This document shows positions 56,701-63,700 of a DNA stretch of 64,000 bases, one piece after another. Position 1 is the stretch's first letter. Each line of letters starts with the position of its first letter. The notes beneath the pieces are model-generated. The model had not been told where the DNA came from. It did not search any database and saw nothing but the letters and a program-made list of their open reading frames with translations. Made by a program: the position numbers and the translations under genes. The DNA comes from Escherichia coli (GTDB lineage Bacteria; Pseudomonadota; Gammaproteobacteria; Enterobacterales; Enterobacteriaceae). Where the stretch lies: NCBI RefSeq assembly GCF_044647545.1, contig NZ_CP172818.1; one strand, written 5' to 3'.

Positions 56701-56815
56701 CGCACTCCCTCTTCCCTTCCGATTTACCTCTCCTTGTTCTGCGTCATAGTATGATCGTTAAATAAACGAACGCTGTTCTATAATGTAGAACAAAATGATT
56801 CAGCAAGGAGATCTC

Positions 56816-57724
56816 ATGCCGCAGTCCGCGTTGTTCACGGGAATCATTCCCCCTGTCTCCACCATTTTTACCGCCGACGGCCAGCTCGATAAGCCGGGCA
56901 CCGCCGCGCTGATCGACGATCTGATCAAAGCAGGCGTTGACGGCCTGTTCTTCCTGGGCAGCGGTGGCGAGTTCTCCCAGCTCGGCGCCGAAGAGCGTAA
57001 AGCCATTGCCCGCTTTGCTATCGATCATGTCGATCGTCGCGTGCCGGTGCTGATCGGCACCGGCGGCACCAACGCCCGGGAAACCATCGAACTCAGCCAG
57101 CACGCGCAGCAGGCGGGCGCGGACGGCATCGTGGTGATCAACCCCTACTACTGGAAAGTGTCGGAAGCGAACCTGATCCGCTATTTCGAGCAGGTGGCCG
57201 ACAGCGTCACGCTGCCGGTGATGCTCTATAACTTCCCGGCGCTGACCGGGCAGGATCTGACTCCGGCGCTGGTGAAAACCCTCGCCGACTCGCGCAGCAA
57301 TATTATCGGCATCAAAGACACCATCGACTCCGTCGCCCACCTGCGCAGCATGATCCATACCGTCAAAGGTGCCCATCCGCACTTCACCGTGCTCTGCGGC
57401 TACGACGATCATCTGTTCAATACCCTGCTGCTCGGCGGCGACGGGGCGATATCGGCGAGCGGCAACTTTGCCCCGCAGGTGTCGGTGAATCTTCTGAAAG
57501 CCTGGCGCGACGGGGACGTGGCGAAAGCGGCCGGGTATCATCAGACCTTGCTGCAAATTCCGCAGATGTATCAGCTGGATACGCCGTTTGTGAACGTGAT
57601 TAAAGAGGCGATCGTGCTCTGCGGTCGTCCTGTCTCCACGCACGTGCTGCCGCCCGCCTCGCCGCTGGACGAGCCGCGCAAGGCGCAGCTGAAAACCCTG
57701 CTGCAACAGCTCAAGCTTTGCTGA
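56816..57724 (+). CDS. yagE: 2-keto-3-deoxy-D-xylonate/gluconate aldolase (DapA/DHDPS family)
   Basis: 302 aa from [18 protein letters not shown]...; DHDPS-family fold. Confidence 0.88.
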
Positions 57725-57738
57725 GCCGGACGATAACG

Positions 57739-61326: not shown

Positions 61327-62937
61327 ATGGAAATCACTAACCCGATACTCACCGGCTTCAACCCGGACCCGTCCCTGTGCCGCCAGGGCGAGGACTACTA
61401 CATCGCCACCTCGACCTTCGAGTGGTTCCCGGGCGTGCGCATCTACCACTCCCGTGACCTGAAAAACTGGTCGCTGGTCAGCACCCCGTTGGACCGCGTG
61501 TCGATGCTGGACATGAAGGGCAACCCGGACTCCGGCGGCATCTGGGCGCCGTGCCTGAGCTACGCCGACGGTAAATTCTGGCTGCTCTACACCGACGTGA
61601 AGATTGTCGACTCGCCGTGGAAAAACGGCCGCAACTTCCTCGTCACCGCGCCCTCCATCGAGGGGCCATGGAGCGAGCCAATCCCGATGGGCAACGGCGG
61701 GTTTGACCCGTCCCTGTTCCACGACGACGATGGCCGCAAATACTATATCTACCGCCCGTGGGGGCCGCGCCACCACAGCAACCCGCACAACACCATCGTG
61801 TTACAGGCGTTTGACCCGCAGACCGGCACGCTCTCGCCCGAGCGCAAAACGCTGTTTACCGGCACGCCGCTCTGCTACACCGAAGGCGCGCACCTGTATC
61901 GCCACGCGGGATGGTACTACCTGATGGCCGCCGAGGGCGGCACCAGCTACGAGCACGCCGTCGTGGTGCTGCGTTCCAAAAATATCGACGGGCCGTACGA
62001 GCTGCACCCGGACGTAACGATGATGACCAGCTGGCACCTGCCGGAGAACCCGCTGCAGAAGAGCGGCCACGGCTCGCTGCTGCAGACGCATACGGGTGAA
62101 TGGTACATGGCCTACCTCACCAGCCGCCCGCTGCGCCTGCCCGGCGTGCCGCTGCTGGCCTCCGGCGGACGCGGCTACTGCCCGCTGGGGCGCGAGACCG
62201 GCATCGCCCGCATTGAATGGCGCGACGGCTGGCCGTACGTGGAAGGCGGCAAGCACGCGCAGCTGACCGTGAAAGGCCCGCAAGTAGCCGAGCAGCCTGC
62301 AGCCGTTCCGGGCAACTGGCGGGACGATTTCGACGCCAGTTCGCTTGACCCGGAGCTGCAGACCCTGCGCATTCCGTTCGACGACACCCTCGGCTCGCTC
62401 ACCGCGCGCCCGGGCTTCTTACGGCTCTATGGCAACGACTCGCTCAATTCGACCTTCACCCAATCGACCGTGGCGCGCCGCTGGCAGCACTTCGCCTTCC
62501 GGGCAGAAACGCGGATGGAGTTCTCGCCGGTGCACTTCCAGCAGAGCGCGGGGCTGACCTGCTACTACAACAGCAAAAACTGGAGCTACTGCTTTGTGGA
62601 CTACGAGGAGGGACAGGGTAGAACCATCAAAGTTATCCAGCTCGACCACAACGTGCCGTCGTGGCCGCTGCACGAGCAGCCCATTCCGGTGCCGGAACAT
62701 GCGGAGAGCGTCTGGCTGCGGGTGGACGTGGATACGCTGGTCTACCGCTACAGCTACTCGTTTGATGGCGAGACGTGGCACACCGTGCCGGTGACGTATG
62801 AGGCGTGGAAGCTGTCGGACGACTACATCGGCGGGCGCGGCTTCTTCACCGGCGCGTTTGTGGGCCTGCACTGCGAGGACATCAGCGGCGACGGCTGCTA
62901 CGCGGACTTCGACTACTTCACCTACGAGCCGGTCTAA
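61327..62937 (+). CDS. yagH: Beta-xylosidase (GH43)
   Basis: 536-aa ORF MEITNPILTGFNPDPSLCRQGEDYYIATSTFEWFPGV... Confidence 0.9.
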   Translation: MEITNPILTGFNPDPSLCRQGEDYYIATSTFEWFPGVRIYHSRDLKNWSLVSTPLDRVSMLDMKGNPDSGGIWAPCLSYADGKFWLLYTDVKIVDSPWKNGRNFLVTAPSIEGPWSEPIPMGNGGFDPSLFHDDDGRKYYIYRPWGPRHHSNPHNTIVLQAFDPQTGTLSPERKTLFTGTPLCYTEGAHLYRHAGWYYLMAAEGGTSYEHAVVVLRSKNIDGPYELHPDVTMMTSWHLPENPLQKSGHGSLLQTHTGEWYMAYLTSRPLRLPGVPLLASGGRGYCPLGRETGIARIEWRDGWPYVEGGKHAQLTVKGPQVAEQPAAVPGNWRDDFDASSLDPELQTLRIPFDDTLGSLTARPGFLRLYGNDSLNSTFTQSTVARRWQHFAFRAETRMEFSPVHFQQSAGLTCYYNSKNWSYCFVDYEEGQGRTIKVIQLDHNVPSWPLHEQPIPVPEHAESVWLRVDVDTLVYRYSYSFDGETWHTVPVTYEAWKLSDDYIGGRGFFTGAFVGLHCEDISGDGCYADFDYFTYEPV

Positions 62938-62941
62938 CGGC

Positions 62942-63700
62942 TCAGGCCGGGTAGCCCAGCGCGCGCGAGAGCGCGAGCCCGGCCTGCTGAAGCTGCTCGC
63001 GGAAATTAGCCAGCTCCGCGTCGTCCACGCGGGAGGTCAGCGTCGACAGGCTCAGGGCGGCGATGACGCGGGACTCGTGGTTCCACACCGGCACCGCCAC
63101 GCAGCGCACGCCCTGCTCGTTCTCTTCGCTGTCCAGGGCGTAGCCTTGCTCGCGGGTCTGCGCCAGGGCGCTCATTAAGGCTTCGCGAGACGCGAGGGTG
63201 GCGGGCGTAAAGGTAGTGTACTGATAGCCCTCCAGCAGGGCGTTCAGCTCGGCCTCGCCCAGCCAGGCAATCAACACCTTGCCGATGGCGGTGGCGTGCA
63301 CCGGCAGGCGGCGGCCGATGCGTGAATAGGCGATGGCGGCCAGCTTGCCTTCAATCTTCTCGATATAGACCCCTTCACGCCCGTCCAGGATCCCCAGATG
63401 GGTGGTCTGCCCGGTCCGCCGGGACAGCTCCGTCAGCCAGCCTTTTGCCTTCTGCCGAATATCGATGGAGCCCACGACAAAATGGCCGCGCTCGACCAGC
63501 TTCATGCCGAGGCGATACTTGCCGTTCTCCGGGTTCTGATCGATATAGCCGTGAAGCTGCAGGGTTTTTAGCAGCGAGTGGAGGGTACTCTTGCTCAGCC
63601 CCATCAGTTTGCTGATGTCGGTGATCTTAAGCTCGGTGGCCTGCTCGTTGAACAGGTCGAGGATCTGCAACGCACGTTCAACAGACTGAATAATCGGCAT
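62942..63700 (-). CDS. xynR: IclR-family transcriptional regulator (xylonate catabolism repressor)
   Basis: 252-aa ORF MPIIQSVERALQILDLFNEQATELKITDISKLMGLSKSTLHSLLKTL... Confidence 0.9.
   Translation of the reverse strand: MPIIQSVERALQILDLFNEQATELKITDISKLMGLSKSTLHSLLKTLQLHGYIDQNPENGKYRLGMKLVERGHFVVGSIDIRQKAKGWLTELSRRTGQTTHLGILDGREGVYIEKIEGKLAAIAYSRIGRRLPVHATAIGKVLIAWLGEAELNALLEGYQYTTFTPATLASREALMSALAQTREQGYALDSEENEQGVRCVAVPVWNHESRVIAALSLSTLTSRVDDAELANFREQLQQAGLALSRALGYPA

Follow-up and report, generated by a model that had tools for sequence, protein, structure and literature searches.

How a GC-rich (guanine-plus-cytosine-rich) cluster of xylonate genes came to lie in the CP4-6 prophage island of Escherichia coli, and where the imported DNA begins and ends, are questions raised by a 64,000-nt stretch of E. 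coli DNA (contig NZ_CP172818.1 of assembly GCF_044647545.1; hereafter, the window). A preliminary description of this sequence had interpreted yagE, yagF, yagG, yagH, and xynR as a xylonate catabolic island embedded in the prophage, bounded by GC-rich palindromic repeats and acquired from a donor of higher GC content. Comparative analysis indicates that yagEFGH-xynR and the adjoining argF very probably constitute a single fragment of approximately 8.4 kb, derived from the tabA-[xylonate cluster]-argI-rraB locus of a bacterium resembling members of the Enterobacter cloacae complex and present today as the xylonate cluster of K-12.

A megablast search of window positions 55000-64000 against 5,426 complete E. 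coli genomes returned 100% DNA identity to K-12 strains, in which the annotated order is ISEc19 (yagA), yagE, yagF, yagG, yagH, xynR, and then argF. Together with family scans, this identity confirms the gene names given in the preliminary description. On the plus strand lie yagE (56816-57724), encoding a 2-keto-3-deoxy-D-xylonate (pentonate) aldolase of the DHDPS/NAL class (family scan and PDB match); yagF (57739-59706), for a D-xylonate dehydratase of the YjhG/YagF family in the IlvD/EDD superfamily (family scan); yagG (59933-61315), for a GPH-family cation symporter presumed to transport xylonate or a xyloside (family scan); and yagH (61327-62937), for a member of glycoside hydrolase family 43 (GH43) annotated as a beta-xylosidase (Pfam and RefSeq). 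The minus strand carries xynR (yagI; 62942-63700), for an IclR-family repressor of yagEFGH (family scan and annotation), and argF, for an ornithine carbamoyltransferase (OTCase; K-12 annotation). The 3′ end of argF occupies 63839-64000 and, with the segment past 64000 extended by identical K-12 sequence, the full gene spans 63839-64843.

Profiles of GC content and codon usage set the five genes from yagE to xynR apart from the core genes of the window, as had been proposed. Their pooled GC is 0.642 and their GC at third codon positions (GC3) is 0.859 (gene range, 0.795-0.894), compared with 0.510 and 0.547 for the 28 intact core genes, among which the maximum GC3 is 0.649. The corresponding values for the 16 other CP4-6 genes are 0.552 and 0.621; GC3 is 0.34-0.49 in the genes from yagJ to intF, 0.756 in ISEc19 (GC, about 0.62), and 0.767 in argF (GC, 0.59). 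Amino-acid-weighted codon-usage distances to the pooled core genes are 0.63-0.68 for yagF, yagG, and yagH (z = 4.2-4.7), 0.57 for xynR, and 0.49 for yagE, against a mean of 0.315 (standard deviation, 0.076) among the core genes themselves. The long antisense shadow open reading frames (ORFs) noticed earlier are also present: those of 100 aa or longer have a density of 1.81 per kb in the five genes, about twice the 0.80 per kb of the core genes. Nearly all use one antisense frame, the longest measuring 358 aa (in yagF) and 320 aa (spanning all of yagE), and they are explained by the very high GC3, of which such ORFs are a standard by-product.

The donor lineage was traced through YagF in a scan of one genome per species. 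Its closest relatives (98% amino acid identity) are in Enterobacter hormaechei subsp. hoffmannii, Enterobacter vonholyi, and Enterobacter quasihormaechei, followed by those of Leclercia (94%), Raoultella (93%), and Phytobacter, Buttiauxella, and Kluyvera (86-87%); the tier below reaches no more than 77% and comprises Brenneria, then Bacillota and Alphaproteobacteria at 66-75%. At the DNA level, the sequence from 56599 to 64985 is collinear with three Enterobacter chromosomes at 93.6-95% identity, with the collinearity spanning xynR, the palindromic repeat to its right, argF, and the argF upstream region, while segment identity is 86-87% to Leclercia and 83% to Raoultella. The Leclercia locus reads mgtA ... 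pyrI-pyrB-yjgK (tabA family)-repeat-yagE-yagF-yagG-yagH-xynR-(small ORF)-OTCase-rraB-miaE, and in E. hormaechei, E. vonholyi, and an Enterobacter metagenome-assembled genome (MAG) the xylonate cluster is likewise followed by OTCase and rraB. The native K-12 locus reads pyrI-pyrB-...-tabA-yjgL-argI-rraB. Comparison of these gene orders places the xylonate cluster of the donor genera at the position of E. coli yjgL, and identifies the adjoining OTCase gene as the resident argI orthologue.

K-12 ArgF shares 98.5% amino acid and 95.4-95.9% nucleotide identity with the Enterobacter OTCase, compared with 87.7% and 78.9% for K-12 ArgI. Judged by sequence, K-12 argF is the donor's argI orthologue, evidently carried in on the same 8.4-kb fragment as the xylonate genes. 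The two Enterobacter species to which the K-12 gene was compared are 95.6% identical to each other in this gene, suggesting that the donor was another member, or a close relative, of the E. cloacae complex. Horizontal acquisition is therefore indicated both by atypical GC, GC3, and codon usage in the block and by matching composition and synteny in the donor locus; the proposed higher-GC donor is thus supported, and is narrowed to Enterobacter by identity, synteny, and GC3. The locus and its function are already known from the published xynR regulon. No relevant paper proposing that argF or the CP4-6 cargo came from Enterobacter turned up in the literature searched; the donor lineage, the joint transfer of argF, and the position of the junctions may therefore be new details.

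Within E. coli, 316 of the 5,426 complete genomes contain yagF, with identity never below 99% (99.9-100% in all 60 rows sampled); the carriers comprise K-12 derivatives, F′ factors, E. coli C, and a small number of natural isolates. Such a rare and nearly invariant gene fits one recent introduction, and a recent import is also indicated by the Enterobacter-type GC3 and codon usage, which are still intact. A plasmid was considered as the vehicle of the block and rejected, as the plasmid-borne copies are on laboratory F′ factors alone.

The imported unit is larger than the yagE-xynR block of the preliminary description. It runs for approximately 8.39 kb at a GC of 0.618, from 56596 to about 64986 (past the window end), and thus includes yagEFGH-xynR and argF; both junctions could be placed to within a few nucleotides. 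The left junction, at about 56596, falls within a repeat unit; Enterobacter and Leclercia have this unit in full, whereas in K-12 it is interrupted by ISEc19, whose right end is intact. High-GC foreign DNA continues beyond the right repeat and through argF to the right junction at about 64986, some 25 nt before the native position of the rraB start codon. On the 3′ side of this junction lie a DUF3987 gene fragment and then a copy of insertion sequence (IS) IS1.

The claim that the block is embedded in a prophage holds on the K-12 map, where K-12 annotation and the 100% identity from position 37494 on place it in CP4-6, between thrW and intF. Since the cluster is within this annotated interval, and the part of it in the window (37494-64000) is K-12-identical and shares one history, the cluster might be genuine phage cargo (a moron) that arrived with CP4-6 at its integration into thrW. 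This scenario is distinctly improbable. The cluster is joined to an IS end on the left and to a truncated DUF3987 prophage gene on the right and is bracketed by IS1 copies, junctions that indicate insertion into a pre-existing island; its GC3 (0.86) is far from that of the other CP4-6 genes (0.62, and lower still from yagJ to intF). In addition, the module has been found outside the thrW prophage. In the human isolate 504239 (NZ_CP025859.1) it is IS-bounded and adjoins mhpT, and in CP057270.1 the IS-bounded module lies near the ecp genes, joined to ecpB via an intact IS3-family element, with 16 single-nucleotide polymorphisms over 11.3 kb; the shared unit in the latter (54650-65939) has another IS on the left and lacks the left IS1. 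The module order in natural isolates is mmuPM-fbpC-IS1-...-yagB-ISEc19-yagEFGH-xynR-argF-IS1, and public assemblies typically break at the bracketing IS elements, yielding contigs of about 10.5-10.8 kb. The block thus looks like IS-associated rather than phage-delivered cargo.

The palindromic repeats invite a different explanation, namely that they are functional borders (recombination sites or att-like) that mobilized a yagE-xynR cassette. GC-rich inverted repeats do exist on both sides, at 56599-56677 and 63784-63804, as the preliminary description had held. The left repeat (56596-56677) consists of two inverted units, the outer one cut short by ISEc19, with arms at 56599-56616/56638-56655 and 56635-56648/56664-56677; the right repeat unit (63772-63828), in the xynR-argF spacer, has arms at 63784-63792/63796-63804 and is orthologous in Enterobacter. 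An exact 21-nt motif, GGGAGAGGGCCGGGGTGAGGG, flanks yagE-xynR in direct orientation, at 56653 and 63796, and is absent from the remainder of the 64 kb; by chance, no occurrence would be expected. In E. hormaechei and E. quasihormaechei, a 1.2-kb insertion at the right repeat marks that site as plastic.

A border function is nevertheless very doubtful. Part of what had been taken for the left repeat (56567-56589) is the terminal inverted repeat of ISEc19, and the right repeat is internal to the import, with foreign DNA going on for 1.2 kb past it. Both repeats occupy orthologous positions in the native Enterobacter and Leclercia loci: between xynR and OTCase, E. vonholyi, E. hormaechei, and the Enterobacter MAG all have the right one, and the homology to Enterobacter and Leclercia begins at the left one. 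The 21-nt motif and its variants also occur at other, unrelated intergenic sites of the Enterobacter, Leclercia, and Phytobacter loci (in Leclercia, 7 kb upstream of the cluster), and the motif is present in about 4,100 E. coli genomes devoid of the cluster; members of the repeat family are dispersed in the majority of E. coli genomes. About 3,800 E. coli genomes without the cluster match the repeat of approximately 50 nt alone, at unannotated sites and in a median of 2-3 places per genome. Among the loci examined, no genome has yagE-xynR excised or inserted exactly at the repeats. The elements are palindromic, intergenic, and dispersed, with a GC of 0.67-0.73; by these features they are donor-type dispersed intergenic repeats inherited with the fragment, and not borders.

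These repeats may be BoxC-type elements, a tentative label; BoxC elements are GC-rich, about 56 bp long, and present in 22-32 copies in K-12 (PMC2267715). At E <= 1e-3, the repeat was counted in only 3 places per genome in K-12, a low number at the sensitivity of this search. As for the insertion mentioned above, it measures approximately 1.2 kb, is of low GC (0.45), and lies beside the xynR-OTCase repeat in E. hormaechei subsp. hoffmannii (locus positions 10212-11428) and E. quasihormaechei (6141-7302). It contains a 194-aa ORF with no family match and is flanked by sequences resembling repetitive extragenic palindromes (REP-like; GCCCGGCGGCGC...). E. vonholyi and K-12 have no such insertion at this repeat.

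A further alternative holds that high GC is intrinsic to the gene family, through selection or mutation bias, and carries no foreign signature. It draws on the observation that cluster GC3 is somewhat above that of some flanking genes in Enterobacter and Phytobacter, yet it is scarcely tenable, as cluster GC3 tracks the host: 0.83-0.85 in Enterobacter, 0.80 in Leclercia (where the neighbors mgtA and pyrB have 0.825 and 0.807), 0.76 in Raoultella, 0.71-0.76 in Phytobacter, 0.67 in Kluyvera, 0.57 in Brenneria, 0.50 in Buttiauxella, and 0.43 in a low-GC Enterobacteriaceae MAG. The K-12 paralogues yjhG and yjhH likewise have a GC3 of only 0.57-0.58, and composition would explain neither the 94-95% DNA identity to Enterobacter nor the presence of the cluster in 6% of E. 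coli genomes. That GC3 follows the host suggests that the cluster is long resident in those genera and compositionally adapted to them; the E. coli copy, at 0.859, keeps the Enterobacter signature. Finally, although the GC of 0.63-0.67 in the block is above the known genome averages of Enterobacteriaceae, a distant and truly high-GC donor such as Pseudomonas, Burkholderia, or an actinomycete has a negligible likelihood given the steep fall in YagF identity from 98% in Enterobacter, 94% in Leclercia, and 93% in Raoultella to 77% or less, and the synteny with Enterobacter that extends to the intergenic repeats and the argI-rraB spacer.

How the Enterobacter-like fragment entered E. coli can be approached through the IS elements around it. 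It is a classical observation that argF is flanked by IS1 on both sides in K-12 and that other E. coli strains lack the gene, and the foreign character of the region has long been established. The same arrangement is found here: ISEc19-yagEFGH-xynR-argF is bracketed by a pair of IS1 copies that share one orientation, on the minus strand (53707-54468 and, in K-12-extended coordinates, 65172-65941). The Enterobacter-like DNA, however, reaches neither copy: about 2.1 kb separate it from the left IS1 (0.9 kb of remnants plus the 1.25-kb ISEc19) and about 0.2 kb from the right IS1. Given these gaps, IS1 is not established as the original capture vehicle. The fragment would have been captured by IS activity in which an ISEc19 end became fused to its left edge; in the likeliest account, IS-mediated shuffling would then have left it between direct IS1 copies in the IS-riddled CP4-6 island.

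The features to the left of the fragment can be read against this account. The left IS1, identified by K-12 comparison as the left member of the pair bracketing the argF-yag region (about 53704/53707-54468), is followed by low-GC (0.47) remnants on the minus strand (54469-55341) that are outside the Enterobacter-like DNA: an IS30 fragment, a transposase fragment, the yagB antitoxin gene (54923-55273), and a gene fragment. Next is ISEc19 itself (IS481 family; 55342-56589, minus strand; family scan and K-12 annotation), with its transposase at 55367-56509. Its right end is intact and abuts the imported DNA, while the outer 25 nt or so of its left end are missing relative to complete copies. The terminal inverted repeat is tandemly doubled (55342-55368 and 56547-56589); in complete relatives, which come from a Phytobacter chromosome and from E. 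coli plasmids, each end carries the doublet and is bounded by GTAC, and relatives at 84-88% identity are carried by Leclercia, Enterobacter, and E. coli plasmids. With its outer left repeat lost, the K-12 ISEc19 is probably immobile. In Phytobacter ursingii, an ISEc19 relative (83% amino acid identity; locus positions 20589-21867) lies 4.5 kb downstream of the xynR orthologue; the repeat into which it is inserted and the K-12 left repeat belong to one family. Targeting of GC-rich repeats by ISEc19 was not supported, as two of five copies (K-12 and Phytobacter) are in repeats and three plasmid-borne copies are outside them.

Several points weigh against an E. cloacae-complex origin with IS-mediated capture. 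The best donor match is just 94-95% at the DNA level, which implies that the actual donor species is absent from the one-genome-per-species set, and even in Enterobacter the cluster GC3 of 0.83-0.85 is somewhat above that of some neighboring genes, although the flank samples were small. The right junction is not at an IS end but is fused to the DUF3987 gene fragment, and the K-12 ISEc19 is truncated on its left side. The proposed capture mechanism is itself hypothetical.

The chromosomal context of CP4-6 in this genome raises a separate question. From position 1 to 37493 (the end of rrnH, dkgB ... proBA, thrW), the window is 95-98.5% identical to K-12, with several indels, whereas from 37494 to 64000 it is K-12 CP4-6 base for base, bar one variant IS1 copy. 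The identity switch, at 37494, is 3 nt past the 3′ end of the tRNA-Thr gene thrW. The exception in CP4-6 is the left IS1. Its identity is about 92% both to its positional counterpart in K-12 and to all other IS1 sequences compared; for this variant, the best match across both junctions among complete E. coli genomes is 94.4%. The core part of the window has a best complete E. coli match of 98.6%, and positions 27533-37500 are essentially identical to alleles common in E. coli strains of about 5.1 Mb, bar indels at 28635-29524. At the thrW site, strains sharing the ProA allele of the window have other prophages or none, and no genome among the 5,426 complete ones combines this backbone with CP4-6. 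In the indel-bearing interval 28635-29524, relative to those strains, about 1 kb of rtcB is missing and the prfH-ydjM stretch is different; rtcB and prfH are likewise truncated in K-12.

The arrangement could possibly have arisen by a recent site-specific transfer of the island, as a laboratory hybrid, or as an assembly chimera. Divergence from K-12 is uniform over the backbone, with no long K-12-identical patches before thrW, a pattern that neither proves nor excludes a chimera. A very recent transfer of the whole CP4-6 island, with its xylonate-argF cargo, to an unrelated lineage through site-specific integration is unlikely, though it deserves mention; if true, the "cryptic" CP4-6 island would still be transferable.

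The family assignments of the encoded proteins are consistent with a xylonate pathway. YagF matches NCBIfam TIGR03432 with 1160.9 bits over residues 17-652 (cut-off, 808.15) and has the Pfam domains ILVD_EDD_N and ILV_EDD_C on record; no structure of it has been solved, and the closest relatives with known structures are dihydroxy-acid dehydratases. YagE corresponds to the PDB entries 2V8Z and 2V9D ("YagE"; E = 1.4e-202, residues 1-302), with Pfam PF00701 on record, and YagG matches NF007237 (808.8 bits; cut-off, 610) and TIGR00792 (507.6; cut-off, 231). For YagH, PF04616 (GH43) and PF17851 (GH43_C2) are on record for an identical product, which RefSeq describes as a GH43 protein, and the NCBIfam comparison gave a weak AbnA match alone. 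XynR carries PF09339 (HTH_IclR) and PF01614 (IclR_C) and is of the IclR/KdgR type, and a 100% identical record is annotated as the repressor XynR. The start of yagE requires revision, as the position proposed previously, 56795, corresponds to an in-frame ATG further upstream; the start annotated in K-12, 56816, has an AAGGAG Shine-Dalgarno sequence and is backed by cross-genus alignment, Buttiauxella having an 11-nt insertion between the two ATG codons.

The biochemical role of YagF in D-xylonate dehydration is taken from the literature. YagF and YagE are reported to convert D-xylonate to 2-keto-3-deoxy-D-xylonate and then to pyruvate and glycolaldehyde, with uptake by YagG assumed (PMC13279387). 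The title of that paper also names 2-keto-3-deoxy-D-xylonate as the natural effector of D-xylonate operon regulators, and XynR (YagI) is described as a single-target repressor that binds the yagE/yagA spacer (PMC5934670). The same arrangement of six genes (yhcH, aldolase, dehydratase, yagG, beta-xylosidase, and iclR) has been described in E. cloacae, where knock-outs of the dehydratase or aldolase abolished growth on xylonate, whereas those of yagG, the xylosidase, and iclR had no effect (PMC7158088). In the mode of action drawn from this literature, XynR represses the yagE promoter until relieved by a xylonate-derived effector; YagG, the presumed importer, would supply the substrate, YagF dehydrates D-xylonate, and YagE cleaves the product to pyruvate and glycolaldehyde, with YagH as a GH43 xylosidase.

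A candidate operator for this regulation lies upstream of yagE. The perfect 17-bp palindrome GTTCTATAATGTAGAAC (56775-56791) is unique in the window and invariant in eight genera, Enterobacter, Buttiauxella, and Kluyvera among them, although the surrounding sequence diverges; it overlaps a TATAAT hexamer and is 25 nt upstream of the yagE start. By its conservation and uniqueness it is likely the XynR operator, and XynR bound there would occlude the -10 region. No match to the sigma-70 consensus was obtained upstream of yagE or yagG, and an Rfam scan of 53000-64000 gave zero matches. The yagF-yagG spacer (59707-59932) is 226 nt long with a GC of 0.34 and, just 3′ of yagF, contains a strong intrinsic-terminator-like hairpin on the plus strand (59725-59752) with 10 pairs and a following T-run. 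The binding of XynR to the conserved palindrome is deduced from sequence features, and the terminator-like hairpin fits poorly with a single yagEFGH transcript. The yagEF and yagGH pairs may be partly separate transcripts.

Comparison with known systems places the cluster more precisely. With respect to the yagEFGH-xynR regulon of K-12 CP4-6 (Shimada et al. 2017, cited in PMC5934670; PMC13279387), this is the same locus, at 100% DNA identity and with the same genes in the same order; nothing differs in the block, and only the surrounding core backbone of the window is not that of K-12. The native Enterobacter and Leclercia locus, equivalent to the E. cloacae operon, shares the gene order, the promoter palindrome, the intergenic repeats, and the GC3, and Enterobacter reaches 96-99% protein and 94-95% DNA identity; there, however, the locus is ordinary chromosomal DNA flanked by tabA/yjgK and rraB, in contrast to the ISEc19 and prophage gene fragment that flank it in K-12. 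The K-12 yjhIHGF cluster (KpLE2) offers the same dehydratase and aldolase chemistry with an IclR-type regulator, also in a phage-like element, with identities of 66% (YagF/YjhG), 57% (YagE/YjhH), and 31% (XynR/YjhI). It differs in having a GntP-type instead of a GPH-type transporter, in lacking a GH43 gene, and in that YjhI is reported to be an activator. In composition the cluster resembles ordinary E. coli genes (GC3, 0.43-0.58); this ordinary composition and the low identities indicate that yjhFGHI was not the source of the yag cluster.

In a related observation, YagF is 70-75% identical to homologues in Neobacillus and Paenibacillus (Bacillota) and 73% identical to one in Pleomorphomonas (Alphaproteobacteria). 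YagF is thus nearer to these than to YjhG, suggesting that the E. coli xylonate dehydratases YagF and YjhG represent different subfamilies, each with its own history. The Dahms and Weimberg oxidative pentose pathways (for example, Caulobacter xylXABCD) share the step catalyzed by an IlvD/EDD-family dehydratase, and the Dahms route also shares the aldol cleavage to pyruvate and glycolaldehyde. They differ in that E. coli has no xylose dehydrogenase or lactonase (PMC13279387), which suggests that its cluster acts on external xylonate only.

The cluster is used in metabolic engineering, for the production of ethylene glycol, 1,2,4-butanetriol, and glycolate from xylose or xylonate. Its history provides a worked example of a chromosomal fragment recently captured between enterobacterial genera and not yet drifted to host composition; the details follow from routine comparison, leave the understanding of the xylonate system unchanged, and open no new question. 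Elsewhere in CP4-6, mmuP, mmuM, and fbpC (49869-53346), also cargo of the island, are moderately GC-rich (GC3, 0.62-0.70) and are reported to be specific to K-12 among E. coli strains (PMC3228920); they resemble a further piece of chromosome acquired by capture.

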